From the IMG/VR virus record IMGVR_UViG_3300028029_000109: a stretch of DNA of 64,000 bases; one strand, 5' to 3'. Positions 5,369 through 62,750 of this stretch are shown piece by piece. Numbering within the stretch: the stretch's first letter is position 1; every line of letters starts with the position of its first letter. The translations under genes were made by a program, and so were the position numbers. Below the pieces are notes generated by a model, which was given only the letters and a program-made list of their open reading frames with translations, ran no database searches and had not been told where the DNA came from. This DNA comes from a virus.

Positions 5369-5579
5369 CGTTTTATAATAGCAGAAAAAACTCGGAAGAA
5401 AATTGTTAAGAAAGACGCTAAGGAACAAGCTAAGGAACAAGCAATCAAGAATATTTAAAAGTCATTTAGAAAATGTTATAATTTATGATTAGAGATGCGA
5501 AGATAGCATTAACAAGCCCTAAATGGGCTTGTAATTTTGCAAGAGATATTCTAAGCAATATTTGAAGGATATTTAGAGA

Positions 5580-6179
5580 ATGTTAGAAGCGCTGATTAGA
5601 GATGAAAAAACTGCTCCGAAATCTTTGGAGTATAAGTTAATAAACAACCTTGCAACTTTAGAGGACCAGGAAGAAGCATTAACGAGGCCTATTTTGGCTT
5701 ATTACTTTGCAAAAGATATTCCAGGAGCTAACATTGAAGTTTGTCAGGAAGTAGCAGCAAAGGATCCTGAATGGGCTTATGAATTTGCAAGAGATGTTAA
5801 AGGAGCAAATATTGAAGTTTGTCAGGGAGGGGCAATCAAGGAGCCTGTATGGGCTTATTACTTTGCAAAAGATGTTACAGGAGCAGATGTTGAAGTCTGT
5901 CAGGAAGCAGTAATCAAGGATCCTGGATTTGCTTATTTATTTGCAAGAGATGTTAAAGGAGCAGACATTGAGGTTTGTCAGGAGCAAGCAATCAAAGATC
6001 CTGAATGGGCTTATAGATTTGCAAAAGATATTCAGGGAGCAGACATTGAAGCTTGCCAGGAGCAAGCAATCAAAGATCCTGTATGGGCTTATTACTTTGC
6101 AAGAGATATTCCAGGAGCAGATATTGAGGTCTGTCAGGAGCAAGCAGTCAAGGATCCTATATGGGCTTATAAATTTTAA
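5580..6179 (+). CDS. 26-aa repeat protein (array 1)
   Basis: Conserved head plus ~6 repeats; ends abruptly at YKF-TAA. Confidence 0.85.
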   Translation: MLEALIRDEKTAPKSLEYKLINNLATLEDQEEALTRPILAYYFAKDIPGANIEVCQEVAAKDPEWAYEFARDVKGANIEVCQGGAIKEPVWAYYFAKDVTGADVEVCQEAVIKDPGFAYLFARDVKGADIEVCQEQAIKDPEWAYRFAKDIQGADIEACQEQAIKDPVWAYYFARDIPGADIEVCQEQAVKDPIWAYKF

Positions 6180-6225
6180 ATATATAGAGGCATCAGGGGT
6201 AAGTCATTATAAGGATATTTAGAGA

Positions 6226-7002
6226 ATGTTAGAAGCACTGATTAGAGATGAAAAAACTGCTCCGAAATCTTTTGGGTATAGACTTATTAATGATTTAGTA
6301 AACTTAGAGGATCAGGAAGAGGCATTAACGAATCCTGAATGGGCTTATGAATTTGCAAAGGACATTATAGGGGCAGATATTGAAGTCTGTCAGTGTGGAG
6401 CAATCAAGGAGCCTGAATGGGCTTATAGATTTGCAAAAGATATTCAGGGAGCAGACATTGAAGCTTGTCAGGAAGGAGCAATTAAAGAGCCTTATTGGGC
6501 TTATGAATTTGCAAGAGACATTAAAGGAGCTAACATTGAAGTCTGTCAAGGTGGAGCAATCAAGGAGCTTTATTGGGCTTATGAATTTGCAAGAGATATT
6601 AAGGGAGCAGATATTGAAGTTTGTCTGGAAGCAGTAATCAAGAAGCCTGTATATGCTTATAAATTTGCAAGATATGTTACAGGAGCGAATATTGAAGTCT
6701 GTCAGGAAGCAGCAGTCAAGGAGCCCGGATGGGCTTATCATTTTGCAAAAGATATTCCAGGAGCAGATATTGAAGCTTGTCAGGAAGGAGTAATCAAGGA
6801 TCCTGAATGGGCTTATTATTTTGCAAGAGATATTACAGGAGCAAACATAGTAATCTGTCAGGGTGGAGCAGTAAAGGATCCTAAATGGGCTTATATATTT
6901 GCAAGAGATGTTAAAGGATCGGATATTGAAGTTTGTCAGGAAGCAGTCAAGAATTCTATATGGGCTTATAGATTTGCAAAAGATATTCTAAGCAATATTT
7001 GA
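6226..7002 (+). CDS. 26-aa repeat protein (array 1)
   Basis: Head plus ~8 repeats; C-cap DILSNI. Confidence 0.9.
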   Translation: MLEALIRDEKTAPKSFGYRLINDLVNLEDQEEALTNPEWAYEFAKDIIGADIEVCQCGAIKEPEWAYRFAKDIQGADIEACQEGAIKEPYWAYEFARDIKGANIEVCQGGAIKELYWAYEFARDIKGADIEVCLEAVIKKPVYAYKFARYVTGANIEVCQEAAVKEPGWAYHFAKDIPGADIEACQEGVIKDPEWAYYFARDITGANIVICQGGAVKDPKWAYIFARDVKGSDIEVCQEAVKNSIWAYRFAKDILSNI

Positions 7003-7016
7003 AGGATATTTAGAGA

Positions 7017-7268
7017 ATGTTAGAAGCACTGATTAGAGATGAGAAAACTGCTCCGAAATCTTTTGGTTATAAGTTAAGAAATAATCTTCTAACATTAGAG
7101 GATCAGGAAGAAGCATTAACAAGTCCTAAATGGGCTTATTATTTTGCAAGAAATGTTAAAGGGGCAGATATTAAAGTATGTCAGGAGCAAGCAGTCAAGA
7201 GTCCTAGATTGGCTTATAGATTTGCAAAAGATATTCCAGGAGCAGATGTTAAAAGGGAAACATGTTAG
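7017..7268 (+). CDS. 26-aa repeat protein, short (array 1)
   Basis: Head plus ~2 repeats; stop overlaps the next ATG. Confidence 0.85.
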   Translation: MLEALIRDEKTAPKSFGYKLRNNLLTLEDQEEALTSPKWAYYFARNVKGADIKVCQEQAVKSPRLAYRFAKDIPGADVKRETC

Positions 7269-8353
7269 AAGCACTGATTAGAGATGCGAAAACAGCTCCG
7301 AAATCTTTTGGGTATAAGTTAAGAAATAATCTTCTAACATTAGAGGATCAGGAAGAAGCATTAACAAATCCTAAATGGGCTTATTACTTTGCAAAAGATG
7401 TTCCAGGAGCAGACATTGAAGCCTGTCAGGAAGAAGCAATCAAGGATCCTAAATGGGCTTATTGTTTTGCAAGAGATATTTCGGGAGCTAATATTAAAGT
7501 TTGTCAGGAAGCAGCAATTAAGGATCCTGTATGGGCTTATGAATTTGCAAAAGATGTTAAAGGAGCGAGTATTGAAGTCTGTCAGGAAGGAGCAGTAAAG
7601 AGTCCTGAATGGGCTTATAATTTTGCAAAAGATGTTATAGGTGCAGATATTGAATTCTGTCAGGAAGTAGCAATCAAGGATCCTATATGGGTTTATCAAT
7701 TTGCAAAAGATGTTACAGGGGCGAATATTGAAGTCTGTCAGGAAGGAGTAATCAAGGATCCTGTATGGGCTTATAAATTTGCAAGATATATTCCAGGAGC
7801 AGACATTGAAGCCTGTCAGGAAGCAGTAATCAAGGATCCTGTATGGGCTTATAAATTTGCAAAAGATGTTACAGGAGCGAACATTGAAGTCTGTCAGGAA
7901 CAAGCAGTAAAGGAGCCTATATGGGCCTATAAATTTGCAAAAGATATTACAGAAGCGAACATTGAAGCCTGTCAGTGTGGAGCAATCAAGGAGCCTTATT
8001 TAGCTTATTATTTTGCAAAAGATATTAAGGGAGCAGATATTGAAGTTTGTCAGGAAGCAGCAATTAAGGATCCTGAATGGGCTTATAGATTTGCAAAGGA
8101 CGTTAAAGGAGCAGATATTGAAGTTTGTCAGGAGCAAGCAATTAAAGAGCCTGAATGGGCTTATAATTTTGCAAGAAATGTTAAAGGAGCAAGTATTGAA
8201 ATCTGTCAGGATGGAGTAATCAAGGATCCTGGATGGGCTTATTATTTTGCAAAATATGTTAAGGGAGCAGATATTGAAGTCTGTCAGGGTGGAGCAATCA
8301 AGGATTCTTATTGGGCTTATAAATTTGCAAGAGATGTTATACATAATACTTGA
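7262..8353 (+). CDS. 26-aa repeat protein (array 1)
   Basis: Head plus ~12 repeats. Confidence 0.9.
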   Translation: MLEALIRDAKTAPKSFGYKLRNNLLTLEDQEEALTNPKWAYYFAKDVPGADIEACQEEAIKDPKWAYCFARDISGANIKVCQEAAIKDPVWAYEFAKDVKGASIEVCQEGAVKSPEWAYNFAKDVIGADIEFCQEVAIKDPIWVYQFAKDVTGANIEVCQEGVIKDPVWAYKFARYIPGADIEACQEAVIKDPVWAYKFAKDVTGANIEVCQEQAVKEPIWAYKFAKDITEANIEACQCGAIKEPYLAYYFAKDIKGADIEVCQEAAIKDPEWAYRFAKDVKGADIEVCQEQAIKEPEWAYNFARNVKGASIEICQDGVIKDPGWAYYFAKYVKGADIEVCQGGAIKDSYWAYKFARDVIHNT

Positions 8354-8367
8354 AGGATATTTAGAGA

Positions 8368-9225
8368 ATGTTAGAATTTTTGATTAGAGATGCAAAAACA
8401 GCTCCGAAATCTTTTGGGTATAAGCTAAAAAATAACCTCTTGACATTAGAGGATCAGGAGGAAGCATTAACGAAGCCTAAATGGGCTTATGAATTTGCAA
8501 GATATGTTAAAGGAGCAGATATTGAAGTCTGTCAAGGTGGAGCAGTAAAGGATTCTGTATGGGCTTATTATTTTGCAAAAGATATTGCAGGAGCAGACAT
8601 TGAACTCTGTCAGGAAGCAGCAATCAAGGATCCTGAATGGTCTTATAAATTTGCAAACTATATTCCAGGAGCAGATATTGAAGTCTGTCAGGGTGGAGCA
8701 ATAAAGGAGCCTAAATGGGCTTATTATTTTGCAAGAAATGTTAAAGGAGCAGACATTGAATTATGTCAAGAAGCAGCAATCAAGGAGCCTGAATGGGCTT
8801 ATAGATTTGCAAGAGATGTTACAGGAGCAGATATTGAAGTCTGTCAGGAAGTAGTAATCAATGAGCCCATGTGGGCTTATTATTTTGCAAAACATATTCC
8901 AGGAGCAGATATTGAAGTCTGTCAGGGTGGAGCAATCAAGGATCCTGTATGGGCTTATAGATTTGCAAAGGATATTCCGGGTGCAGACATTGAAATCTGT
9001 CAGGAAGCAACAATTAAAGAGCCTAAATGGTCTTATTGTTTTGCAAAATATGTTCCAGGCGCAGACATTGAGGTCTGTCAGGAGCAAGCAATCAAGGAGC
9101 CTGAATGGGCTCATGAATTTGCAAGAGATGTTATAGGAGCAGATGTTGAAGTCTGTCAGGAACAAGCAGTAAAGGAGCCTATATGGGCTTATAAATTTGC
9201 AAGATATGTTATACGTAATATTTGA
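8368..9225 (+). CDS. 26-aa repeat protein (array 1)
   Basis: Head plus ~9 repeats. Confidence 0.9.
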   Translation: MLEFLIRDAKTAPKSFGYKLKNNLLTLEDQEEALTKPKWAYEFARYVKGADIEVCQGGAVKDSVWAYYFAKDIAGADIELCQEAAIKDPEWSYKFANYIPGADIEVCQGGAIKEPKWAYYFARNVKGADIELCQEAAIKEPEWAYRFARDVTGADIEVCQEVVINEPMWAYYFAKHIPGADIEVCQGGAIKDPVWAYRFAKDIPGADIEICQEATIKEPKWSYCFAKYVPGADIEVCQEQAIKEPEWAHEFARDVIGADVEVCQEQAVKEPIWAYKFARYVIRNI

Positions 9226-9239
9226 AGGATATTTAGAGA

Positions 9240-9569
9240 ATGTTAGAAGCACTGATTAGAGATGAGAAAACTGCTCCGAAATCTTTTGGTTATAAGTTAA
9301 GAAATAATCTTCTAACATTAGAGGATCAGGAAGAAGCATTAACAAGTCCTAAATGGGCTTATTATTTTGCAAGATATATTACAGGAGCGAACATTGAAGT
9401 CTGTCAGAAAGCAGCAGTTAAGGATCCTTATTGGGCTTATAGATTTGCAAAATATATTCCAGGAGCAGATATTGAGGTCTGTCAGGAGCAAGCAGTCAAG
9501 AGTCCTAGATTGGCTTATAGATTTGCAAAAGATATTCCAGGAGCAGATGTTAAAAGGGAAACATGTTAG
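9240..9569 (+). CDS. 26-aa repeat protein, short (array 1)
   Basis: Head and tail identical to 7017..7268, with one extra repeat. Confidence 0.85.
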   Translation: MLEALIRDEKTAPKSFGYKLRNNLLTLEDQEEALTSPKWAYYFARYITGANIEVCQKAAVKDPYWAYRFAKYIPGADIEVCQEQAVKSPRLAYRFAKDIPGADVKRETC

Positions 9570-10516
9570 AAGAACTGATTAGAGATGCGAAAACTGCTCC
9601 GAAATCTTTTGGTTATAAGCTGAAAAATAATCTTCTAACTTTAGAGGATCAGGAAGAAGCATTAACAAGTCCTAAATGGGCTTATAAATTTGCAAGATAT
9701 GTTCCAGGAGCTAACATTGAAGTTTGTCAGGAAGTAGCAGTTAATGAGCCTTATTTGGCTTATTACTTTGCAAAGGATGTTACAGGGGCAGATATTGAAG
9801 TCTGTCAGGAAGGAGTAATCAAGGATCCTGTATGGGCTTATGAATTTGCAAAAGATGTTAAAGGAGCGAGTATTGAAGTCTGTCAGGAAGGAGCAGTAAA
9901 GAGTCCTGAATGGGCTTATAATTTTGCAAAAGATGTTACAGGAGCAGATATTGAATTCTGTCAGGAAGTAGCAATCAAGGATCCTATATGGGTTTATTAC
10001 TTTGCAAGAGACGTTATAGGTGCAGATATTGAATTCTGTCAGGAAGGAGCAATCAAGGATCCTAGATTGGCTTATAGATTTGCAAGAGATATTGTAGGGG
10101 CAGATATTGAAGTCTGTCAGGAAGGAGCAATCAAGGATCCTGAACGGGCTTATAGATTTGCAAGATATATTCCAGGGGCGAATATTGAAGTTTGTCAGTG
10201 TGGAGCAATTAAGGATCCTGAATGGGCTTATTATTTTGCAAAATATGTTAAAGGAGCAAATATTGAATTATGTCAGGAAGCAGTAGTTAAGGATCCTTAT
10301 TGGGTTTATTGTTTTGCAAGAGATATTACAGGAGCTAACATTGAAGTTTGTCAGGAAGTAGCAATCAAGGATCCTGAATGGGCTTATTATTTTGCAAAAA
10401 ATGTTCCAGGAGCGGATATTGAAGTCTGTCAGGAAGGAGCAATAAAGGATCCTAAATGGGCTTATAGATTTGCAAGAGATATTGTAGGGGCAGATATTGA
10501 AAGGGCAACATGTTAG
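9563..10516 (+). CDS. 26-aa repeat protein (array 1)
   Basis: Head plus ~10-11 repeats. Confidence 0.9.
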   Translation: MLEELIRDAKTAPKSFGYKLKNNLLTLEDQEEALTSPKWAYKFARYVPGANIEVCQEVAVNEPYLAYYFAKDVTGADIEVCQEGVIKDPVWAYEFAKDVKGASIEVCQEGAVKSPEWAYNFAKDVTGADIEFCQEVAIKDPIWVYYFARDVIGADIEFCQEGAIKDPRLAYRFARDIVGADIEVCQEGAIKDPERAYRFARYIPGANIEVCQCGAIKDPEWAYYFAKYVKGANIELCQEAVVKDPYWVYCFARDITGANIEVCQEVAIKDPEWAYYFAKNVPGADIEVCQEGAIKDPKWAYRFARDIVGADIERATC

Positions 10517-11460
10517 AATTTTTGATTAGAGATGCGAAAACTGCTCCGAAATCTTTTGGGTATAAGATAAAAAATAATCTTCTAACATTAGAGGATCAAG
10601 AAGAAGCATTAACGAATCCTGTATGGGCTTATTATTTTGCAAGATATGTTAAGGGAGCAGATATTGAAGTTTGTCAGGAAGTGGCAATCAAGGATCCTAA
10701 ATGGGCTTGTAGATTTGCAAAAGATATTACAGGAGCAGATATTGAAGTTTGTCAGGAAGCAATCAAGGATCCTGAATGGGCTTATAAATTTGCAAAAGAT
10801 GTTACAGGAGCAGATATTGAAGTCTGTCAAGGTGGAGCAGTAAAGGATCCTGAATGGGCTTATAGATTTGCAAAGGATATTCCGGGTGCAGATATTGAAG
10901 TCTGTCAGGAAGCAACAATTAAAGAGCCTGTATGGGCTTATGAGTTTGCAAGAGATGTTAAAGGAGCGAACATTGAAGTTTGTCAAGAAGCAGTAGTCAA
11001 GGAGCCTGTATGGTCTTATTATTTTGCAAACTATATTTCAGGAGCAGATATTGAAGTTTGTCAGGAAGCAGCAATCAAGGATTCTGAATCGGCTTATAAA
11101 TTTGCAAGAGACGTTATAGGAGCAGATGTTGAAGTCTGTCAGGGTGGAGCAGTAAAGGATCCTAGATGGGCTTATTATTTTGCAAAACATGTTAAAGGAG
11201 CAGACATTGAAGTCTGTCAGGAAGCAACAATTAAAGAGCCTATGTGGGCTTATGAATTTGCAAGAAATGTTACAGGAGCGAATATTAAAGTCTGTCAGGA
11301 ACAAGCAGTAAAGGATCCTAGATGGGCTTATGAATTTGCAAGATATGTTAAAGGAGCTAACATTGAAGTCTGTCAAAAAGCAGCAATCAAGGAGCCTGAA
11401 TGGGCTTATAGATTTGAAAAAGATATTCCAGGAGCAGATGTTGAAAGGGTAACATGTTAG
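10510..11460 (+). CDS. 26-aa repeat protein (array 1)
   Basis: Head plus ~10-11 repeats, one of them 25 aa. Confidence 0.9.
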   Translation: MLEFLIRDAKTAPKSFGYKIKNNLLTLEDQEEALTNPVWAYYFARYVKGADIEVCQEVAIKDPKWACRFAKDITGADIEVCQEAIKDPEWAYKFAKDVTGADIEVCQGGAVKDPEWAYRFAKDIPGADIEVCQEATIKEPVWAYEFARDVKGANIEVCQEAVVKEPVWSYYFANYISGADIEVCQEAAIKDSESAYKFARDVIGADVEVCQGGAVKDPRWAYYFAKHVKGADIEVCQEATIKEPMWAYEFARNVTGANIKVCQEQAVKDPRWAYEFARYVKGANIEVCQKAAIKEPEWAYRFEKDIPGADVERVTC

Positions 11461-12005
11461 AAGCACTGATTAGAGATGCGAAAACAGCTCCGAAATCTTT
11501 TGGGTATAAGCTGAAAAATAATCTTCTAACCTTAGAGAATCAGGAAGAGGCATTAACAAGTCCTAAATGGGCTTATAAATTTGCAAGATATGTTAAAGGA
11601 GCAGACATTGAAGCCTGTCAGGAAGTGGCAATCAAGAATCCTTATTGGGCTTATTGTTTTGCAAGATATGTTCCAGGAGCGGATATTGAAGTCTGTCAGG
11701 GTGGAGCAATCAAGGATCCTGAATGGGCTTATTATTTTGCAAAATATGTTAAAGGAGCGAGTGTTGAAGTTTGTCAGGAAGGAGCAATTAAGAATCCTGA
11801 ATGGGCTTATAAATTTGCAAGAGATGTTACAAAATCAGACATAGTAATCTGTCAGGGTGGAGCAATAAAGGAGCCTAAATGGGCTTATTATTTTGCAAGA
11901 AATGTTAAAGGAGCAGACATAATAGCCTGTCAGGGTGGAGCAATCAAGGAACCTGAATGGGCTTATAGATTTGCAAGAGATATTAGAGGAATCATAGGTA
12001 AGTAA
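11454..12005 (+). CDS. 26-aa repeat protein (array 1)
   Basis: Head plus ~5 repeats. Confidence 0.9.
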   Translation: MLEALIRDAKTAPKSFGYKLKNNLLTLENQEEALTSPKWAYKFARYVKGADIEACQEVAIKNPYWAYCFARYVPGADIEVCQGGAIKDPEWAYYFAKYVKGASVEVCQEGAIKNPEWAYKFARDVTKSDIVICQGGAIKEPKWAYYFARNVKGADIIACQGGAIKEPEWAYRFARDIRGIIGK

Positions 12006-12027
12006 TAATACTTGAAGGATATTTAGC

Positions 12028-12513
12028 ATGTTAGAATTTTTGATTAGAGATGCGAAAACAGCTCCGAAATCTTTTGGATATAAGTTAAGAAATAATCTTT
12101 TAACTTTAGAGGATCAGGAAGAAGCATTAACAAATCCTAAATGGGCTTATTGTTTTGCAAAAGATGTTAAAGGAGCTAACATTAAAGTCTGTCAGGAAGC
12201 AGCAATAAAGAATCCTGAATTGGCTTATAGATTTGCAAAAGATGTTAAAGGAGCAGATATTGAAGTTTGTCAGGAGCAAGCAATTAAAGAGCCTGAATGG
12301 GCTTATAATTTTGCAAGACATGTTAAAGGAGCTAACATTGAAGTCTGTCAGGAAGCAGCAATAAAGAATCCTGAATTGGCTTATAGATTTGCAAAATATG
12401 TTAAGGGAGCAGATATTGAAGTCTGCCAGGAAGCAGCAGTAAGGGATCCTTATTGGGCTTATGCTTTTGCAAGAGATATTACAGGAGCAGATGCTGAAAG
12501 GGCAACATGCTAG
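12028..12513 (+). CDS. 26-aa repeat protein (array 1)
   Basis: Head plus ~4-5 repeats, including near-identical internal duplicates (KNPELAYRFAK). Confidence 0.9.
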   Translation: MLEFLIRDAKTAPKSFGYKLRNNLLTLEDQEEALTNPKWAYCFAKDVKGANIKVCQEAAIKNPELAYRFAKDVKGADIEVCQEQAIKEPEWAYNFARHVKGANIEVCQEAAIKNPELAYRFAKYVKGADIEVCQEAAVRDPYWAYAFARDITGADAERATC

Positions 12514-13463
12514 AAGCACTGATTAGAGATGCGAAAACTGCTCCGAAATCTTTGGGGTATAGACTCAATAATGGTTTAGTAACCTTAGAAGATCAGGAAG
12601 AAGCATTAACAAGTCCTAAATGGGCTTATTGTTTTGCAAGATATATTCCAGGAGCTAACATTGAAGCCTGTCAGGGAGGAGCAGTCAAGGAGTCTGTATG
12701 GGCTTATAAATTTGCAAGATATATTCCAGGAGCAGATATTGAAGTTTGTCAGGAAGCAGTAATCAAGGATCCTTATTGGGCTTATTATTTTGCAAAACAT
12801 ATTCCAGGAGCGAATATTGAAGCCTGTCAGGAAGGAGCAATCAAGGATTCTGAATGGGCTTATGAATTTGCAAGAGGTGTTAAGGGAGCAGATATTGAAG
12901 TTTGTCAGGAAGTAGCAGTTAAGGATCCTATATGGGCTTATTATTTTGCAAGAAATGTTAAAGGAGCAGACATTGAATTATGTCAAGGTGAAGCAGTCAA
13001 GGAGCCTAAATGGTCTTATAAATTTGCAAGAGATATTTCGGGAGCTAATATTAAAGTTTGTCAGGAAGGAGTAATCAAGGATCCTGAATGGGCTTATTAT
13101 TTTGCAAGAGATATTTCGGGAGCTAATATTAAAGTTTGTCAGGAAGCAGCAATCAAGGATCCTGTATGGGCTTATGAATTTGCAGAATATATTATAGGAG
13201 CTAATATTGAAGTCTGTCAGGCAGGAGCAATCAAGAAGCCTGTATGGGCTTATAATTTTGCAAAACATGTTAAAGGAGCTAACATTGAATTTTGCCAAGA
13301 AGGAGCAGTAAAGAGTTCTGAATGGGCTTATTACTTTGCAAGATATATTCCAGGAGCAGATATCGAAGTTTGTCAGGAAGTGGCAATCAAGGATCCTAAA
13401 TGGGCTTGTAGATTTGCAAGAGATATTCTAGGAGATATTCCAGGAGCAATAAATGATAGATGA
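12507..13463 (+). CDS. 26-aa repeat protein (array 1, last)
   Basis: Head plus ~10-11 repeats. Confidence 0.9.
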   Translation: MLEALIRDAKTAPKSLGYRLNNGLVTLEDQEEALTSPKWAYCFARYIPGANIEACQGGAVKESVWAYKFARYIPGADIEVCQEAVIKDPYWAYYFAKHIPGANIEACQEGAIKDSEWAYEFARGVKGADIEVCQEVAVKDPIWAYYFARNVKGADIELCQGEAVKEPKWSYKFARDISGANIKVCQEGVIKDPEWAYYFARDISGANIKVCQEAAIKDPVWAYEFAEYIIGANIEVCQAGAIKKPVWAYNFAKHVKGANIEFCQEGAVKSSEWAYYFARYIPGADIEVCQEVAIKDPKWACRFARDILGDIPGAINDR

Positions 13464-13818: not shown

Positions 13819-14112
13819 ATGACGTTAGAGATGTTAGGAATGAATGTTTTAGTGAAGATGGAAGATGCTGGAGAAAAGGTTTCTAAGGGTGGTATAATTA
13901 CCCCTGGAACAACGAGACAGTCTTCAATTCAAAAGGCTGAGGTTGTTGCTGTTGGCCCTGGTGAGATCCAGAACGGCAATTTTGTACCGGTTAAGGACAT
14001 TAAGGCTGGAGATACCGTTGTAATTGACAGGGACTTTACTAAAGCTATAGATAATGATGGTGAGGAACAATATATTGTTTCTTATAGAGATGTTCTGGGA
14101 AAATCTGAGTAA
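13819..14112 (+). CDS. groES: co-chaperonin GroES
   Basis: 'VLVK...E..SKGGII.P', 'AEVVAVGPG', 'IKAGDTVV', 'YRDVLG'; 97 aa. Confidence 0.9.
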   Translation: MTLEMLGMNVLVKMEDAGEKVSKGGIITPGTTRQSSIQKAEVVAVGPGEIQNGNFVPVKDIKAGDTVVIDRDFTKAIDNDGEEQYIVSYRDVLGKSE

Positions 14113-25512: not shown

Positions 25513-25587
25513 TGGCAGGTAGCTCAGTCCGGTGAGAGCAGAGTCCTTATAAGGCTCAGGTCGAGGGTTCGAATCCCTTTCTGCCAA
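25513..25587 (+). tRNA. tRNA-Ile(UAU)
   Basis: Cloverleaf: TGGCAGG/TCTGCCA, anticodon arm GAGTC-CTTATAA-GGCTC, T arm GAGGG-TTCGAAT-CCCTT. Confidence 0.92.
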
Positions 25588-26050
25588 CCTTAATGGGATA
25601 TGAATACCATCCCAAATCTTTTACTATTTTTCTTTTATGACAATTAGAACATAAAACTTGACATTTTGATATTTCATTTTTAATTCTATTTATAGAGATG
25701 CATCTTGCAACGCCATGAGATATTGCAAATTCCTTTTCTCTCAAGTGATCAAGCTCTAGAACTATAGGGTCATCTTCACCACATTGAACGCATGGATTAG
25801 CCATAAGGTAATCATAAACGTATTTCCTTAATTTTTGTTGCCTTTCCTTTTTGGCCTTCAATATGTTTTTCAACTGAGATTCCCTGTTCTCAGAATATTG
25901 CTTTTTGGCACGCTCTTTCGAACAAGATCTGCATATTCCCTGTAACCCGTCCACAGTTGATTTCTTTTTATTGAAGTCAGATGCGTCTTTTTCAACTTTA
26001 CATTTGCAACATTTTTTACTCACAGTTCTTATAAGCGATATTATTGACAT
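25556..26050 (-). CDS. HNH endonuclease
   Basis: 'KKCCKCKVEK...F...GLQGICRSC' and 'CVQCGEDDPIVLELDH...CQVLCSNCHKRK'; start set at ATG 26050; 3' end overlaps tRNA-Ile antisense. Confidence 0.8.
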   Translation of the reverse strand: MSIISLIRTVSKKCCKCKVEKDASDFNKKKSTVDGLQGICRSCSKERAKKQYSENRESQLKNILKAKKERQQKLRKYVYDYLMANPCVQCGEDDPIVLELDHLREKEFAISHGVARCISINRIKNEISKCQVLCSNCHKRKIVKDLGWYSYPIKVGRKGFEPST

Positions 26051-26100
26051 ATAAGATAGGGATTTCTTTACATGAATAGAAAGGTGTGATAGAAGATCGT

Positions 26101-27831
26101 ATGAATCAATCTCTCCCCCTAATGCTACAGTCAATTTTTGACAACGACCTATATAAGTTTACGATGCAACAGGCTGTGCTTGAATTGTATCCTGATGCAA
26201 TTGTACAGTACAGGTTTAAAAATAGAGGTTCTCATAAGTTCGGTGAGAGATTTCTTGAGTTGTTCAAATCAGGCCTTGAGAATGTGAAAAATCTTAAAGG
26301 TACTGAGGAAGAGTATAAAAAATTCGAAACTCTCTCTTTTATCAAACCCTGGTATGCGGCTTACGTTAAAAGCTTTAGGTTCGACCCATCTCAAATAACG
26401 TTCGACATGAAAGATGGCGGTCTATCTCTACAGATTGATGGCCCTTGGCACTCTACTATTTTATGGGAAGTTCCACTGATGGCTCTCATTTCCGAATGCT
26501 ACTTCCAAATTGAAAAAAAAGATGGTCTTTGGGATATGAAAAATCAAGCATCCAAGCTTGAGCTTAAAGGTAATAGGCTAAGTACTGGTCATTGCAGGTA
26601 CGCTGATTTTGGTACTCGTAGACGTAGGTGTTATGAGGTACAAGACTTCATTGTTAATAAGATGAAGGATCATTACTGGTTCTCTGGAACATCCAATGTT
26701 CATCTAGCATTCAAACATGGTGTACGTCCTATTGGAACTATGGCTCATGAATGGGTTCAAGCTACAGCTGCCCTTGAGAGCATGAATCACCCCAATCGTT
26801 TTATGCTTGAAAACTGGGTGAAAGTATACGGCTCTGATCTTGGCATTGCCCTGCCAGACACGTATGGTGCCGAATCCTTCTTCAAGGATTTCAACAAGAC
26901 GCTGGCATCAATTTATGATGGAGTACGTCATGACTCTGGTGATCCATTCATATTCGCAGACAAGGTTGTACAACATTACAAAGAGATTGGAATTGACCAT
27001 ACCTCCAAAACTATTGTTTTCTCGGACGGCCTTAATGCAGACCTGGCAGCAGAGATTCAGACATATTGTGATAATATTGAAATAAAGTGCTCGTTCGGAA
27101 TTGGAACATCTTTTACGAATGATTTTGACACGCCAGCTCTAAACATGGTAATCAAGTTATGGTCTGTCAATGGAATGTGCGTGGTAAAGCTTTCGGATAA
27201 CCCTGGGAAGGCTAATGGCGACGAAGCAATGGTTAAAATCATGAGACACATTCACATGCCGGAGGCATGTATAATGGAAGAAGTAGATGCGAAAACAGCT
27301 CCAAAATCTTTTGGTTATAAGCTGAGAAATAATCTTCTAACATTAGAGGATCAGAAAGAAGCATTAACGGATCCTTATTGGGCTTATATATTTGCAAAAC
27401 ATATTCCAGGAGCAGACATTGAAGCCTGTCAAAAAGCAGTAATCAAGGATCCTGAATGGGCTTATGAGTTTGCAAAAGATATTCCAGGAGCTAATATTGA
27501 AGCCTGTCAAGGTGGAGCAGTAAAAAATCCTTATTGGGCTTATATATTTGCAAAAGATGTTCCAGGAGCTAATATTGAATTTTGCCAGGAAGCAGCGGTT
27601 AATGAGTCAGAATGGGCTTATCATTTTGCAAGAGATGTTAAGGGAGCAGATATTGAAGTTTGTCAGGAAGGAGCAGTAAAGGATCCTGAATGGGCTTATA
27701 AATTTGCAAGAGATGTTAAGAGAGCAGATATTGAAGTCTGTCAGGGTGGAGTAATCAAGGATCCTGAATGGGCTTATCAATTTGCAAAAGATATTCCAGA
27801 GCAGACATTGAAGCTTGTCAGGAAGCAATAA
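26101..27831 (+). CDS. pncB: nicotinate phosphoribosyltransferase fused in frame to a 26-aa repeat protein
   Basis: 'DNDLYKFTMQQA', 'DFGTRRR', 'GTSNV', 'GTMAHEW', 'GVRHDSGDP', 'IVFSDGL', 'FGIGT', 'KLSDNPGK'; then without a stop 'DAKTAPKSFGYKL...' plus ~5 repeats. Confidence 0.92.
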   Translation: MNQSLPLMLQSIFDNDLYKFTMQQAVLELYPDAIVQYRFKNRGSHKFGERFLELFKSGLENVKNLKGTEEEYKKFETLSFIKPWYAAYVKSFRFDPSQITFDMKDGGLSLQIDGPWHSTILWEVPLMALISECYFQIEKKDGLWDMKNQASKLELKGNRLSTGHCRYADFGTRRRRCYEVQDFIVNKMKDHYWFSGTSNVHLAFKHGVRPIGTMAHEWVQATAALESMNHPNRFMLENWVKVYGSDLGIALPDTYGAESFFKDFNKTLASIYDGVRHDSGDPFIFADKVVQHYKEIGIDHTSKTIVFSDGLNADLAAEIQTYCDNIEIKCSFGIGTSFTNDFDTPALNMVIKLWSVNGMCVVKLSDNPGKANGDEAMVKIMRHIHMPEACIMEEVDAKTAPKSFGYKLRNNLLTLEDQKEALTDPYWAYIFAKHIPGADIEACQKAVIKDPEWAYEFAKDIPGANIEACQGGAVKNPYWAYIFAKDVPGANIEFCQEAAVNESEWAYHFARDVKGADIEVCQEGAVKDPEWAYKFARDVKRADIEVCQGGVIKDPEWAYQFAKDIPEQTLKLVRKQ

Positions 27832-27937
27832 TTAAAGAGCCTGTATGGGTTTATAATTTTGCAAGAGGTGTTAAGGGAGCGAATATTGAAGCTTGTAAGA
27901 AAGCATATCAAGGAACAGAATTCGAAAGATTTGATGA

Positions 27938-28171
27938 ATGTTAGAATTTATGATACAGCACGCTAAAACAACTCCGAAATCTTTTGGGTATAGACTCAAT
28001 AATGGTTTAGTAACCTTAGAGAATCAGGAAGAAGCATTAACAAGTCCTAAATGGGCTTATGAATTTGCAAGAAATGTTACAGGAGCAGATATTGAAGTCT
28101 GTCAGGGTGGAGCAATCAAGGATCCTGGATGGGCTTATAATTTTGCAAGATATGTTAAAGGAGCGAATTAA
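27938..28171 (+). CDS. 26-aa repeat protein, short (array 2)
   Basis: Head variant MLEFMIQHAKTTPKS; truncated by a 13-nt tandem duplication. Confidence 0.7.
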   Translation: MLEFMIQHAKTTPKSFGYRLNNGLVTLENQEEALTSPKWAYEFARNVTGADIEVCQGGAIKDPGWAYNFARYVKGAN

Positions 28172-28234
28172 AGGAGCGAATATTTAAGCTTGTAAGAAAG
28201 CATATCAAGGAACAGAATTCGAAAGATTTGATGA

Positions 28235-28780
28235 ATGTCAGAATTTATGATACAGCACGCTAAAACATCTCCGAAATCTTTTTGGTATAAGCTGAAAAAT
28301 GGTTTAGTAACCTTAGAGGATCAGGAAGAAGCATTAACGGATCCTTATTGGGCTTATTATTTTGCAAAACATATTCCAGGATCAAGTATTGAAGTCTGTC
28401 AGGAAGGAGCAATAAAGAGTCCTGAATGGGCTTATTATTTTGCAAGATATATTCCAGGAGCTAACATTGAAGTCTGTCAGGAAGCAGTAGTAAAGAGTTA
28501 TTATTGGTCTTATGAATTTGCAAAGGATGTTACAGGAGCTAACATTGAAGCCTGTCAGGGTGGAGCAATTAAGGAGCCTAAATGGGCTTATTATTTTGCA
28601 AGAAATGTTACAGGAGCAGACATTGAAGCCTGTCAGGGTGGAGCAGTAAAGGAGCCTGGATGGGCTTATAATTTTGCAAGATATGTTAAAGGGGCGAACA
28701 TTGAAGTCTGTCAGGAAGCAATTAAGGATCCTGAATGGGCTTATCAATTTGCAAAAGATATTCCAGAGGCTAACACTTAA
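28235..28780 (+). CDS. 26-aa repeat protein (array 2)
   Basis: Head plus ~5 repeats. Confidence 0.88.
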   Translation: MSEFMIQHAKTSPKSFWYKLKNGLVTLEDQEEALTDPYWAYYFAKHIPGSSIEVCQEGAIKSPEWAYYFARYIPGANIEVCQEAVVKSYYWSYEFAKDVTGANIEACQGGAIKEPKWAYYFARNVTGADIEACQGGAVKEPGWAYNFARYVKGANIEVCQEAIKDPEWAYQFAKDIPEANT

Positions 28781-28827
28781 ACTTGTAATAATTATATAAT
28801 GGGAACAGGATTCGAAAGATTTAGTGA

Positions 28828-29376
28828 ATGTTAGAATTTTTAATTAGAGATGCGAAAACAGCTCCGAAATCTTTTGGGTATAGACTCAATAATGGTTTAG
28901 TAACCTTAGAGGATCAGGAAGAAGCATTAACAAATCCTAAATGGGCTTATGAATTTGCAAAAGATATTACAGGAGCAGATATTGAAGCCTGTCAGAAAGT
29001 AGCAGTAAAGAGTCCCAAATGGGCTTATTACTTTGCAAAGGACATTATAGGGGCAGATATTGAAGCCTGTCAGAAAGTAGCAGTAAAGAGTCCTGGATGG
29101 GCTTATTATTTTGCAAAAGATGTTACAGGAGCAGATATTGAGGTCTGTCAGGAGCAAGCAGTCAAGGATCCTGTATGGGCTTATAATTTTGCAAGATATG
29201 TTAAAGGAGCAGATATTGAATTCTGTCAGAAAGCAGCAGTTAAGGATCCTGAATGGGCTTATTTATTTGCAAAATATGTTAAAGGAGCAAGTATTGAAAT
29301 CTGTCAGGGTGGAGTAATCAAGGATCCTGAATTGGCTTATCAATTTGCAAAAGATATTCCAGAGGCTAACATTTAA
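28828..29376 (+). CDS. 26-aa repeat protein (array 2)
   Basis: Head plus ~5 repeats. Confidence 0.9.
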   Translation: MLEFLIRDAKTAPKSFGYRLNNGLVTLEDQEEALTNPKWAYEFAKDITGADIEACQKVAVKSPKWAYYFAKDIIGADIEACQKVAVKSPGWAYYFAKDVTGADIEVCQEQAVKDPVWAYNFARYVKGADIEFCQKAAVKDPEWAYLFAKYVKGASIEICQGGVIKDPELAYQFAKDIPEANI

Positions 29377-29423
29377 ACTTGTAATAAGTATATAATGGGA
29401 ACAGGATTCGAAAGATTTAGTGA

Positions 29424-29831
29424 ATGTTAGAATTTTTAATTAGAGATGCGAAAACTGCTCCGAAATCTTTTGGTTATAGACTCAATAATAGTTTAGTAAC
29501 CTTAGAGGATCAGGAAGAAGCATTAACAAATCCTAAATGGGCTTATTACTTTGCAAAAGATGTTCCAGGAGCAGATATTGAAGCCTGTCAGGGTGGAGCA
29601 GTTAAGGAGTCTTATTGGGCTTATTGTTTTGCAAGATATATTCCAGGAGCGAATATTGAAGCCTGTCAGGAAGGAGCAATCAAGGATCCTTATTGGGCTT
29701 ATATATTTGCAAGATATGTTAAAAGAGCAGATATTAAAGTTTGTCAGGGAGGGGCAATCAAGAATTCTTATTGGGCTTATCATTTTGCAAAAAATGTTAC
29801 AGGAGCAGGTATTGAAGTCTGTAAAGGTTAA
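29424..29831 (+). CDS. 26-aa repeat protein (array 2), premature stop
   Basis: Head plus ~3-4 repeats; repeat homology continues past the TAA. Confidence 0.8.
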   Translation: MLEFLIRDAKTAPKSFGYRLNNSLVTLEDQEEALTNPKWAYYFAKDVPGADIEACQGGAVKESYWAYCFARYIPGANIEACQEGAIKDPYWAYIFARYVKRADIKVCQGGAIKNSYWAYHFAKNVTGAGIEVCKG

Positions 29832-29941
29832 TCAATCAATAAGCCTGAATGGGCTTATAAATTTGCAAAAGATATTCCGGGATCTAACATTTAAACTTGT
29901 AATAAGTATATAATAGTAATAGAGTACGAAAGATTTAGTGA

Positions 29942-30231
29942 ATGTTAGAATTTTTTATTAGAGATGCAGAAAATGCTCCGAAATCTTTTGGGTATAAGAT
30001 AAAAATAATCTTGTAACTTTAGAGGATCAGGAAGAAGCATTAACGAATCCTGAATGGGCTTATAGATTTGCAAGATATGTTACAGGAGCAGATATTGAAG
30101 TCTGTCAGGGTGGAGCAGTCAAGGATCCTTATTGGGCTTATGCTTTTGCAATATATATTCCAGGAGCGAATATTGAAGCTTGTAAGAAAGCATATCATGG
30201 AACAGAATACGAAAGGTTTAGTGAGTGTTAG
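29942..30231 (+). pseudogene. frameshifted 26-aa repeat gene (array 2)
   Basis: Head has 'ataaaaataat' versus 'ataaaaaataat' in the intact copy at 10510: a 1-nt deletion in an A run near 30000. Confidence 0.75.
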
Positions 30232-31037
30232 AATTTTTGATTAGAGATGCGAAAACAGCTCCGAAATCTTTTGGGTATAGACTCAATAATGGTTTAGTAA
30301 CCTTAGAGAATCAGGAAGAAGCATTAACAAGCTCTAAATGGGCTTATGAATTTGCAAAAGACATTATAGGGGCAGATATTGAAGCCTGTCAGAAAGTAGC
30401 AGTAAAGAGTCCTGGATGGGCTTATAGATTTGCAAGAAATGTTAAAGGAGCAAATATTGAAGTCTGTCAGAAAGTAGCAGTAAAGAGTCCTGGATGGGCT
30501 TGTAGATTTGCAGGAGATATTCCAGGAGCAGACATTGAAGCTTGTCAGGAAGGAGCAATCAAGGAGCCTGTATGGGCTTATAGATTTGCAAGAGGTGTTA
30601 AGGGAGCAAACATTGAAGTCTGTCAGGAGCAAGCAATTAAAGAGCCTTATTGGGCTTATTATTTTGCAAGATATGTTAAGGGAGCAGATGTTGAAGTTTG
30701 TCAGGAAGCAGTAATCAAGGATCCTTATTGGGCTTATGAATTTGCAAAAGATGTTAAGGGAGCAAACATAGTAATCTGTCAGGGTGGAGCAGTTAATGAG
30801 CCTGTATGGGCTTATTATTTTGCAAGAGATATTACAGGAGCAGACATTGAAGTTTGTCAGGAAGTAGTAAAGGGTTCTGAATGGTCCCATATATTTGCAA
30901 GAGACGTTAAAGGGGCGAGCATTGAAGTCTGTCAGGGTGGAGCAGTAAAGGATCCTAATTGGGCTTATCATTTTGCAAAAGATATTGCAGGAGCAGATGT
31001 TGAAGTTTGTCAGGAAGTAGCGGATAGCGAATGTTAG
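30225..31037 (+). CDS. 26-aa repeat protein (array 2)
   Basis: GTG start; head plus ~9 repeats. Confidence 0.9.
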   Translation: MLEFLIRDAKTAPKSFGYRLNNGLVTLENQEEALTSSKWAYEFAKDIIGADIEACQKVAVKSPGWAYRFARNVKGANIEVCQKVAVKSPGWACRFAGDIPGADIEACQEGAIKEPVWAYRFARGVKGANIEVCQEQAIKEPYWAYYFARYVKGADVEVCQEAVIKDPYWAYEFAKDVKGANIVICQGGAVNEPVWAYYFARDITGADIEVCQEVVKGSEWSHIFARDVKGASIEVCQGGAVKDPNWAYHFAKDIAGADVEVCQEVADSEC

Positions 31038-31645
31038 AATTTTTGATTAGAGATGCAGAAACTGCTCCGAAATCTTTTGGTTATAAGCTAAAAAATAATC
31101 TTGTAACTTTAGAGAATCAGGAAGAAGCATTAACAAGTCCTAAATGGGCTTATAATTTTGCAAAAGATGTTAAAGGAGCAGACATTGAAGCTTGCCAGGA
31201 AGGAGCAATCAAGGAGCCTGTATGGGCTTATTACTTTGCAAGAGATATTCCAGGAGCGAATATTGAAGTTTGTCAGGAAGCAGCAATCAAGGATCCTATA
31301 TGGGCTTATCATTTTGCAAAACATGTTAAAGGAGCAGACATTGAGGTTTGTCAGGAAGGAGCAATCAAGGAGCCTTATTGGGCTTATATATTTGCAAGAG
31401 ACGTTACAGGAGCTAACATTGAGGTTTGTCAGGAGGTAGCAATAAAGAGTTCTGTATGGGCTTATCATTTTGCAAAGGATGTTACAGGAGCTAACATTGA
31501 AGCCTGTCAGGAAGCAGCAATCAAGAATCCTAAATGGGCTTATAAATTTGCAAGAGATGTTACAGGAGCAGACATTGAAGCCTGTCAGGAAGCAGCAATC
31601 AAGGAGCCTAGATGGGCTTATAAATTTGCAGAAGATATTGCATGA
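31031..31645 (+). CDS. 26-aa repeat protein (array 2)
   Basis: Head plus ~6 repeats. Confidence 0.9.
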   Translation: MLEFLIRDAETAPKSFGYKLKNNLVTLENQEEALTSPKWAYNFAKDVKGADIEACQEGAIKEPVWAYYFARDIPGANIEVCQEAAIKDPIWAYHFAKHVKGADIEVCQEGAIKEPYWAYIFARDVTGANIEVCQEVAIKSSVWAYHFAKDVTGANIEACQEAAIKNPKWAYKFARDVTGADIEACQEAAIKEPRWAYKFAEDIA

Positions 31646-31697
31646 GCAAATATTAGAGGCATCATGGTTAAATCACTATACTTGAAGGGTATTTAGC

Positions 31698-32324
31698 ATG
31701 TTAGAATTTTTAATTAGAGATGCGAAAACAGCTCCGAAATCTTTTGGTTATAAGCTAAAAAATAATCTTGTAACTTTAGAGGATCAGGAAGAAGCATTAA
31801 CAAGTCCTAAATGGGCTTATAAATTTGCAAGATATGTTCCAGGAGCAGATATTGAAGTCTGTCAGGGTGGAGCAATCAAGGATCCTGGATGGGCTTATAA
31901 TTTTGCAAGATATATTACAGGTGCAGACATTGAGGTTTGTCAGGAAGGAGCAATCAAGGATTCTTATTGGGCTTATAGATTTGCAAGAGATGTTAAAGGA
32001 GCAAATATTGAAGTTTGTCAGGAAGCAGCGGTTAATAAGCCTGTATGGGCTTATAATTTTGCAAAACATATTCCAGGAGCAAGTATTGAAGTCTGTCAGG
32101 GTGGAGCAATCAAAGATCCTGAGTTGGCTTATAATTTTGCAAAAGATATTAAGGGAGCAGACATTGAAGTTTGTCAGGAACAAGCAATCAAAGATCCTGG
32201 ATGGGCTTATAATTTTGCAAGATATGTTAAAGGGGCGAATATTGAAGTTTGTCAGGGTGGAACAGTCAAGAGTTCTTATTGGGCTTATCAATTTGCAAAA
32301 GATATTCCGGGATCTAACATTTAA
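31698..32324 (+). CDS. 26-aa repeat protein (array 2)
   Basis: Head plus ~6 repeats. Confidence 0.9.
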   Translation: MLEFLIRDAKTAPKSFGYKLKNNLVTLEDQEEALTSPKWAYKFARYVPGADIEVCQGGAIKDPGWAYNFARYITGADIEVCQEGAIKDSYWAYRFARDVKGANIEVCQEAAVNKPVWAYNFAKHIPGASIEVCQGGAIKDPELAYNFAKDIKGADIEVCQEQAIKDPGWAYNFARYVKGANIEVCQGGTVKSSYWAYQFAKDIPGSNI

Positions 32325-32371
32325 ACTTGTAATAAGTATATAATAGTAATAGAATACGAAAGATTTAGTGA

Positions 32372-32692
32372 GTGTTAGAATTTCTGATACAGCACGCTAA
32401 AACATATCCGAAACCTTTTAGGTATAGACTTATTAATGATCTAGTAAATTTAGAGGATCAGGAAGAGGCATTAACGAATCCTGAATGGGCTTATAGATTT
32501 GCAAGAGATGTTAAAGGAGCAAATATTGAAGTTTGTCAGGAAGTAGTAATTAATAGTTCTAGATTGGCACGCTGCGCTGCTAGCTGCGCTGCTAAATGTG
32601 AGCGCAAATTTGATGAACAAAAGTACCAAGTCCTTACGCGAAAGGCTGAGCTTAGTAGTTCAGGGCGACCAGTGGATAGATGGTATCCTTGA
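32372..32692 (+). CDS. chimeric repeat protein: head plus 1 repeat fused to unrelated sequence
   Basis: Repeat homology stops at 'SSRLA' (~32568), then 'RCAASCAAKCERKFDEQ...'. Confidence 0.6.
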   Translation: MLEFLIQHAKTYPKPFRYRLINDLVNLEDQEEALTNPEWAYRFARDVKGANIEVCQEVVINSSRLARCAASCAAKCERKFDEQKYQVLTRKAELSSSGRPVDRWYP

Positions 32693-32972: not shown

Positions 32973-34625
<1,653 letters not shown>

Positions 34626-52277: not shown

Positions 52278-52353
52278 TGGAGCGGGCAGTCAGGATCGAA
52301 CTGACGACATTTTGATTGGAAATCAAAAACTCTACCAACTGAGTTATGCCCGC
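52278..52353 (-). tRNA. tRNA-Gly(UCC) with encoded CCA
   Basis: Perfect cloverleaf GCGGGCA/TGCCCGC, TTTGA-TTTCCAA-TCAAA, GTCAG-TTCGATC-CTGAC. Confidence 0.95.
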
Positions 52354-62703: not shown

Positions 62704-62750
62704 TCACTAAATCTTTCGTACTCTATTACTATTATATACTTATTACAAGT

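Follow-up and report, generated by a model that had tools for sequence, protein, structure and literature searches.

The 64-kb stretch of DNA that we analyzed (hereafter, the window; from IMGVR_UViG_3300028029_000109, a large uncultured phage) carries three tandem clusters of ~23 related genes, which together contain 165 units of a 26-residue repeat. The repeats combine a nearly invariant scaffold with a few hypervariable positions, and the proteins are predicted to be alpha-solenoids. We lean toward the view that these paralogs form an inherited panel of predicted binders with hypervariable solenoid surfaces. An initial annotation of this DNA, which was made from the letters alone, had proposed a variable binding face under diversifying selection. 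This interpretation is partly supported, and the pattern of hypervariability that was reported is confirmed.

Tandem Repeats Finder identified a 78-nt (26-aa) unit at 5667-13434, and again at 27369-32312 on the plus strand and at 61993-63915 on the minus strand. A hidden Markov model of the repeat recognized the 165 units, and our statistics are for the 138 of these that are ungapped and 26 residues long. Numbered from its proline, the unit is P1 x2 W3 A4 Y5 x6 F7 A8 [KR]9 x10 [VI]11 x12 G13 A14 [DN]15 I16 E17 V18 C19 Q20 E21 x22 A23 [IV]24 K25 x26. Although 136 of the 138 repeats are distinct, both as peptide and as DNA, F7, A8, and C19 are invariant in all of them, and ten more positions are 87-98% conserved (Y5, A14, and Q20 at 98%, I16 at 96%, G13 at 94%, A4 at 93%, K25 at 91%, W3 at 90%, E17 at 89%, and P1 at 87%). 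So, the scaffold is indeed nearly invariant, as first described. The initial annotation had also stated that nearly every repeat keeps one cysteine, and C19 makes this claim stronger.

Three positions (2, 6, and 10) had been described as widely variable, and both the residues listed for them and their i/i+4/i+8 spacing are correct. When we computed the entropy of each position across the aligned repeats, positions 6 and 2 ranked first and second, and they did so in each of the three clusters separately. There are 10 residue types at position 6 (2.94 bits; Y37 R22 E21 K19 N12 C9 I6 H6 L3 Q3) and another 10 at position 2 (2.71 bits; E40 K25 Y24 V23 G8 I7 R6 M3 N1 D1). Position 10 is less variable than claimed: it ranks sixth, with 1.69 bits (D75 Y37 H12 N12 G2), and uses essentially NAT codons. 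The third most variable position is 12, which is in the loop (K, P, T, or I, among others; 2.32 bits), followed by positions 22 (1.89 bits) and 26 (1.82 bits). Tyrosine and charged residues make up ~74% of positions 2, 6, and 10. Also, the residue sets are restricted, with chemically unlike residues at similar frequencies. For example, E, K, Y, and V each account for 17-29% of position 2, whose codon never contains the nucleotide C, and the one-step neighbors Q, A, D, and N are nearly absent. Such restricted and chemically disparate sets speak against sites that are simply unconstrained. Among 547 repeats of metagenomic relatives, too, variability is highest at position 6 (3.5 bits).

We modeled the 363-aa paralog with AlphaFold2, using an alignment of 50 sequences. 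The model is a regular two-helix alpha-solenoid (predicted local distance difference test, pLDDT, of 93.7 and predicted template modeling score, pTM, of 0.82), with low confidence for the first 13 residues. It is strictly periodic: positions 1-10 are helix A, a five-residue loop follows, positions 16-23 are helix B, and a three-residue loop completes the unit. Positions 2, 6, and 10 thus share one helix. On a 100-degree helical wheel, these positions lie at 100, 140, and 180 degrees, with K/R9 at 80 degrees, and the conserved residues W3, F7, A4, A8, P1, and Y5 fill a continuous arc of 200 degrees. The arc with positions 2, 6, and 10 (and 9) is the only arc of helix A that is free of conserved apolar residues. 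Its flanks are Y5 (40 degrees) and W3 (200 degrees), and the entropy moment of helix A (0.62) points toward 125 degrees, between positions 2 and 6. The helix assignment and the wheel thus agree with the earlier statements that the variable positions lie on one face of a helix and that a fixed tryptophan and tyrosine border them. (Helix B has a weaker variable stripe of small residues, at positions 18, 21, and 22, which would face the other side.) C19 lies in the conserved stripe of helix B. As the equivalent position is mostly leucine in distant relatives, C19 seems to be there for packing of the core and not as a functional thiol. Among solved structures, the best matches are to designed helical repeats, CTPR proteins, and Sel1 proteins, and alphaRep follows further down; none of the solved-structure matches goes beyond generic solenoids (Foldseek template modeling score (TM) <0.3, VIA Z <7).

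The repeats are carried by separate genes, each with a conserved upstream cassette (one of a few types), a start codon, a 36-aa N-terminal cap (N-cap, or head), and 2-15 repeats. The second half of the head aligns with a repeat whose loop is shortened, and therefore it should act as an N-terminal capping repeat. The start codon is ATG, except for GTG in two genes of cluster 2 and in the fusion to nicotinate phosphoribosyltransferase (NAPRTase). In six cases, the stop codon of one gene lies within the ATGTTAG or ATGCTAG of the next head. Cluster 1, which is the 8-kb array, consists of 11 genes of 83-363 aa, with 2-13 repeats each, and a 29-aa remnant, all as separate open reading frames (ORFs). 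Together, the three clusters take up ~15.4 kb, or 24% of the window, and all of the full-length members retain a start codon, an upstream cassette, and an open frame. A single giant gene that was broken by frameshifts can be ruled out, as no gene lacks a head, a start codon, or an upstream cassette of its own.

We compared the nonsynonymous diversity (pN) of each codon, across all pairs of repeats, with the pooled synonymous diversity (pS, 0.269), and obtained intervals from a gene-level bootstrap. The ratio was highest at codon 6 (2.26, 2.13-2.43), followed by codon 2 (2.06, 1.9-2.2), codon 12 (1.76, 1.6-1.94), codon 22 (1.60, 1.39-1.81), and codon 26 (1.41, 1.19-1.64). At codon 10 it was 0.89 (0.76-1.02). 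Picking the partners by the similarity of their flanking repeats, which avoids circularity, gave the same picture. In a post hoc comparison, nucleotide diversity is 0.44-0.66 at the first two nucleotides of codons 2, 6, and 12, against 0.175 (mean) or 0.09 (median) at synonymous sites. The scaffold is under purifying selection, with ratios of 0-0.3 at 12 of the 26 codons and a nonsynonymous-to-synonymous rate ratio (omega) of 0.47 for the scaffold partition. In a codon model (IQ-TREE GY on a FastTree topology, with the rate free), the hypervariable codons evolve at 6-7 times the scaffold rate. We regard diversifying selection as likely, though unproven, at positions 2, 6, and 12. The initial annotation had proposed such selection for positions 2, 6, and 10, and its proposal holds up in the pairwise comparison for the first two of these.

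A side observation is that synonymous sites in the helix A half of the unit (codons 4-8 and 11) are almost invariant in the 138 copies, and TTT, GCA, and TAT are never swapped for their synonyms, whereas those in the helix B half are free (pi ~0.5 at codons 14 and 18). The invariance could reflect either a constraint at the nucleotide level or a higher rate of conversion near the hypervariable codons.

The variable sites are assorted nearly at random. There are ~31 polymorphic nucleotide sites per 78-nt unit, and linkage between them falls to background within ~6-12 nt. A residue at position 2, 6, 10, or 12 says almost nothing about the residues at the other three or about the scaffold haplotype: the 138 repeats have 113 distinct combinations at these four positions, and 47 combinations at positions 2 and 6. 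The likely source of the window is an "epibiont metagenome" run from a hydrothermal-vent setting, which contains 61% of the window's sampled words. (A vent metagenome from another study contains 7%.) The likely source run yields Logan contigs of 120-157 nt that are identical to repeats in the window. Because of these matches, and because the scale of the mixing is shorter than any assembly k-mer, the mixing is biological. Also, a 184-nt contig from a second study crosses the gene junction at 9563 without a difference. Very short-patch conversion between repeats and recurrent mutation, alone or together, could account for the mixing.

We propose that each gene encodes a cytoplasmic alpha-solenoid, in which the N-cap, with its second half as a degenerate repeat, would be followed by 2-15 helix-loop-helix units. 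W3, A4, F7, A8, V/I11, I16, C19, A23, and I/V24 would form the core, along with the conserved polar residue Q20. Hypervariable positions 2 and 6 would form an outward stripe on helix A, continued by position 12 in the next loop, with Y5, K/R9, and the semi-variable position 10 beside it. Stacking these stripes would give a long and chemically varied surface that is rich in Tyr, Glu, Lys, Arg, and Val. Each paralog would present a different binding surface, and the set would be an inherited repertoire against macromolecules of the host or of competitors, in parallel to the ankyrin-repeat host-range families of poxviruses and giant viruses. The diversity appears to arise and persist through point changes at a few codons, on the one hand, and very fine-scale recombination among repeats along with the gain and loss of units and genes, on the other.

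Several points weigh against this proposal. First, position 10 shows no excess of pN. Second, synonymous diversity is very uneven (0 at codons 5, 7, 8, and 11 but ~0.5 at codons 14 and 18), so the neutral reference is uncertain, and relative to the most variable synonymous sites, the hypervariable codons are merely on a par. Third, omega in the codon model is 1.0 for codons 2 and 6 and 1.29 for codons 2, 6, and 12, with a gain in log-likelihood over omega = 1 of just 0.4. The likelihood profile is flat across omega of ~0.6-2.7, because the hypervariable codons are saturated (the tree length is ~140-170 substitutions per codon), and the tree-based model neither supports nor refutes selection. 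Fourth, we infer the solvent exposure of positions 2, 6, and 10, and the stacked surface, from the geometry of the modeled helix. Fifth, no binding partner can be inferred from the gene context. Finally, the order of the repeats across the 8-kb array is not confirmed by public contigs: Logan contigs break at the edge of the array (5573) and inside it, and a part that no long contig covers is not thereby shown to be absent. The likely source run also contains alternative joints at roughly the phage depth (for example, 7566 to 13137, 8867 to 9681, and 10477 back to 6185), which are either population variants of the repeat arrangement or ambiguity in the assembly graph.

A bolder version of our proposal, which we offer tentatively, is that the array is a germline combinatorial library. 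The sites of its ~165 repeats would have been shuffled to near linkage equilibrium by very short-patch recombination, and the library would be a phage counterpart of innate recognition. If this is true, then one genome encodes at least 136 different repeat modules in ~23 predicted binders, which would be directed at diverse host defense or surface-remodeling proteins and would be renewed via the self-punctuating cassettes of the array.

The serious rival to a panel of binders is neutral variation. The variable positions would then be unconstrained sites on the surface that change by drift and recombination, and the conserved scaffold would do the work, whether as a rod, a spacer, a scaffold, or an abundant decoy. 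Outward-facing variability is normal in natural repeat families, the omega of ~1.0-1.3 from the codon fit is not significantly above 1, and the hypervariable sites are only slightly more diverse than the most variable synonymous sites (pi ~0.5). Nevertheless, we think that this explanation is unlikely. The pairwise ratios of 2.1-2.3 have intervals that exclude 1, and at codons 2, 6, and 12, each of the six first and second positions is in the top range of site diversity. The residue sets also depart from mutational equilibrium. Position 2, for instance, almost never has N, S, T, Q, A, or L, all of which a single mutation would reach. And that a phage has kept ~15 kb of intact genes argues that many different copies matter.

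Another idea is that the repeats act as readers of a linear polymer, whether peptide, nucleic acid, or glycan, with one unit of polymer per repeat and with residues 2 and 6 as the code. The near-identical scaffold, which for helix A extends even to the DNA level, and the two highly variable residues in each repeat would fit such a reader. The pattern resembles the repeat-variable diresidue of TALE proteins, and PPR and PUF proteins are among the weak structural matches (Z 5.8-6.6). However, these structural matches are with generic solenoids and fall below the level of kinship, and neither the charge nor the residue usage fits the basic inner surface and the small recurring residue code of TALE, PUF, and PPR proteins: each of the two positions takes 10 residue types, and no small set recurs among the 47 combinations. 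Also, most of the paralogs are acidic (isoelectric points of 4.4-5.6) and their net charge differs from one to another, which is unsuited to the binding of nucleic acids. We consider a polymer reader to be improbable. A DNA mimic or a nucleic-acid binder does not suit the mild and variable charge either.

We judge it very improbable that mis-assembly produced the array, or that it is decaying or selfish repetitive DNA instead of working genes, because, although short-read contigs break throughout the array, alternative joints occur in the likely source run, and a few members are fragments (5476-5565, 29832-29894, and 29998-30231), the full members keep their start codons, cassettes, open frames, and conserved scaffold, the short contigs match exactly, a contig from an independent study crosses a gene junction, linkage decays over less than any assembly k-mer so that mis-joining cannot have made the mixing, and there are 745 related protein clusters elsewhere.

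How does this family compare to known repeat binders? The natural hypervariable positions of repeat families were the starting point for DARPins and for alphaRep, and the initial annotation likened the repeats to an alphaRep- or DARPin-like paratope. Given the matches among solved folds, the analogy with engineered repeat binders is reasonable, but we find no membership in the ankyrin/DARPin or HEAT families. Like alphaRep and the PBS-type HEAT-like repeats, the window's proteins have a two-helix solenoid, a fixed scaffold, an N-cap, and variable positions with i, i+4, i+8 spacing. In alphaRep, the unit is 31 residues, and its variable positions are carried by the second helix, which makes up the concave face; the window's unit is 26 residues and its variable stripe is on the first helix. 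Also, the window's proteins have no HEAT hit in Pfam and the structural match to alphaRep is weak (Z 4.5). In alphaRep, variable positions 18, 19, 22, 23, 26, and 30 lie on one face that is a proven binding surface (PMC3754942); by analogy, the variable stripe of the window's proteins is a putative binding surface. The ankyrin unit of DARPins is 33 residues with a beta-turn, whereas the window's unit is all-helical and has no Ank hit.

A biological parallel is with the ankyrin-repeat multigene families of poxviruses and giant viruses, which are thought to bind host proteins and to expand and contract by recombination. In both cases a virus has many tandemly duplicated genes for small solenoids with variable surfaces. 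The differences are that the ankyrin repeat is 33 residues with a beta-hairpin loop, that those viruses infect another domain of hosts, and that the window is from a tailed-phage-like genome whose repeat proteins have no PRANC or F-box partner domain. The same design in ~23 copies in one phage suggests that phages, too, use inherited panels of repeat binders, a strategy whose described examples have so far come mostly from large eukaryotic viruses.

Position-specific hypervariability of a putative phage-encoded binding surface is also seen in the targets of diversity-generating retroelements (DGRs). In the window, unlike in a DGR, the variation is between ~165 germline repeats rather than within one variable region. 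Among the 30 non-family ORFs of the window that we scanned against Pfam, none is a reverse transcriptase, and we saw no template repeat. Furthermore, the variable nucleotides are not specific to adenine (the alternatives include G, T, and C) and adenines in the scaffold are invariant. The missing reverse transcriptase and the misfitting mutation pattern rule out a DGR or adenine-targeted mutagenesis within the window. Finally, T4-type internal proteins have a short N-terminal targeting tag that ends in an (L/I)-x-E site for the prohead protease. All of the paralogs, and distant relatives too, have a conserved N-terminal peptide, but we found no (L/I)-x-E site in it by eye.

The family has no Pfam assignment. 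None of the window's family proteins reaches a Pfam gathering threshold, except for a short, spurious match to GerD on one paralog. (We discounted the hits to GerD, ImmE5, NanE, and Cdd1 as short, partial matches that are driven by the repeats.) The window's proteins score 11.5-12.5 bits against PF13475, or DUF4116 (E 0.11-0.22), which is short of the gathering cut-off of 24.9 bits, and nine of the 50 aligned metagenomic relatives touch this family, with a best E value of 7.7e-8. When we compared the model to clusters in AlphaFold DB with Foldseek, the top match was an unnamed gut-metagenome protein (TM 0.87). The best named match was a DUF4116 protein (TM 0.78 by query, root-mean-square deviation 3.4, 23% identity), with more DUF4116 entries below it; the models are predicted on both sides of this comparison. 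DUF4116 is itself uncharacterized; its structure is unsolved, and the prediction for it is an alpha-solenoid (PMC8078820). As in DUF4116, the window's proteins are solenoids of short helix hairpins, but their unit of 26 residues has its own signature (P-x-W-A-Y-x-F-A ... C-Q), and they make up a phage-borne family of ~23 members with a common N-cap. Searching for PF13475 gave no match in five Bacilli or Clostridia metagenome-assembled genomes (MAGs) that contain relatives, nor in 14 control genomes, so the lack of a match says little about the relatives. Overall, the family is a divergent, DUF4116-like group of solenoids.

An exhaustive HMMER search found 745 related clusters (at 50% identity) with E <= 0.001. 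They include small proteins that combine this head with 3-4 repeats and a C-terminal cap (C-cap), and there are giant multi-repeat proteins as well. Word-indexed and genome searches found relatives in many MAGs of gut Bacilli, "Tenericutes", and Clostridia, some of them in chromosomal rows of paralogs, and the look-alikes in the ESM Atlas are mostly viral clusters without a Pfam family. The repeat domain is also fused to enzymes and other domains: NAPRTase in the window, and ThyX, NDK, AAA_5, DUF7666, and DUF1963 in relatives. Fusions to unrelated enzymes are as expected of a portable interaction module.

A tblastn search with one family protein, and a megablast search with the GroEL region, found no match among 50,697 deposited phage genomes, and a scan of IMG/VR viral contigs also found no match. 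In the literature that we searched, we did not find a phage family of this kind, or an expansion to this degree in a phage, described; the passages of an overview of jumbo phages that term matching covers do not mention such a family (PMC7824862).

The family is large and unnamed, and its members are often joined to enzymes, so that solving one partner would be enough to annotate many proteins. Short, very regular, and confidently predicted in fold, the 26-residue unit may interest protein engineers as a scaffold. That variants are almost completely mixed within less than 12 nt raises the further question of how tandem arrays recombine.

We note several features of the relatives. On a gut Bacilli-type chromosome from a Hadza sample (L001 4213-11314), four consecutive genes without Pfam hits, of 643, 650, 497, and 437 aa, lie between thioredoxin and whiA, and at least the last of them is a relative of the family with a period of 28 residues. 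Thus, rows of paralogs from this superfamily exist in cellular genomes too. The closest relatives from outside the window (P0002, P0006, P0120, P0123, P0127, and P0130) have a second conserved cysteine five residues on (C-Q-E-x-A-C) and a distinct C-cap (G-A-D-K-x-x-C ... G-T-x-Y-A-F). The window's genes do not have that C-cap and end within or just past a helix A. The contigs with P0002, P0123, and P0127 are too short to give a useful gene context. On a contig from a Clostridia-labelled MAG (L003 350-2777), an IMPDH-like gene is followed by a ThyX that is fused to four family repeats. This arrangement echoes the nucleotide-metabolism neighborhood and the enzyme fusion of the window.

The gene content of the window is that of a large tailed phage, with GroEL, GroES, an IMPDH/GMP-reductase-like enzyme, thymidylate synthase, and NAPRTase, as well as a Ro60-like protein, EF-Ts, homing endonucleases, and three tRNAs. 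Coordinates are given in Table 1.

Table 1. Members of the repeat family and selected neighboring genes, with positions in the window.
Feature	Coordinates	Strand	Description
Cluster 1 remnant	5476-5565	+	29 aa; shortened head, one helix A, usual C-terminal tail
Cluster 1 gene	5580-6179	+	199 aa; N-cap and 6 repeats
Cluster 1 gene	6226-7002	+	258 aa; N-cap and 9 repeats
Cluster 1 gene	7017-7268	+	83 aa; N-cap and 2 repeats; stop codon TAG within ATGTTAG of next gene
Cluster 1 gene	7262-8353	+	363 aa; N-cap and 13 repeats; protein modeled with AlphaFold2
Cluster 1 gene	8368-9225	+	285 aa; N-cap and 10 repeats
Cluster 1 gene	9240-9569	+	109 aa; N-cap and 3 repeats; overlaps next start
Cluster 1 gene	9563-10516	+	317 aa; N-cap and 11 repeats
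Cluster 1 gene	10510-11460	+	316 aa; N-cap and 11 repeats
Cluster 1 gene	11454-12005	+	183 aa; N-cap and 6 repeats; query for the large searches
Cluster 1 gene	12028-12513	+	161 aa; N-cap and 5 repeats
Cluster 1 gene	12507-13463	+	318 aa; N-cap and 11 repeats; last of cluster 1
GroES	13819-14112		3' of cluster 1
tRNA-Ile (anticodon TAT)	25513-25589		adjoins tRNA-Pro(TGG), just upstream of the NAPRTase-repeat fusion
NAPRTase-repeat fusion	26086-27831	+	NAPRTase, in-frame N-cap (first residues missing), and ~6 repeats; opens cluster 2
Cluster 2, remainder	27938-32692	+	eight further family genes and two fragments
Cluster 2 gene	27938-28171	+	
Cluster 2 gene	28235-28780	+	
Cluster 2 gene	28828-29376	+	
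Cluster 2 gene	29424-29831	+	
Cluster 2 fragment	29832-29894		
Cluster 2 fragment	29998-30231		
Cluster 2 gene	30225-31037	+	
Cluster 2 gene	31031-31645	+	
Cluster 2 gene	31698-32324	+	
Cluster 2 gene	32372-32692	+	
GroEL	32982-34625		3' of cluster 2
tRNA-Gly(TCC)	52278-52353		
Cluster 3	61990-64000	-	two family genes
Cluster 3 gene	61990-62703	-	237 aa
Cluster 3 gene	62751 to window end	-	>412 aa; 15 repeats; cut by window end

A promoter scan found fewer sites than in shuffled controls. The terminator-like sites within the array (13 were flagged) are one recurring short hairpin inside the repeat itself. This hairpin (GAGCC / GGGCTT) occurs when codon 26 is GAG, AAG, or AGT, with hypervariable codon 2 in the loop and a T-rich run after it (for example, 5841-5856, 8147-8162, and 12289-12304), and it is probably incidental to the repeat. 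Finally, clusters 1 and 2 end ~350 nt 5' of GroES and ~290 nt 5' of GroEL, respectively, on the same strand, and the presence of chaperonin genes downstream of both arrays could reflect coincidence or co-expression.

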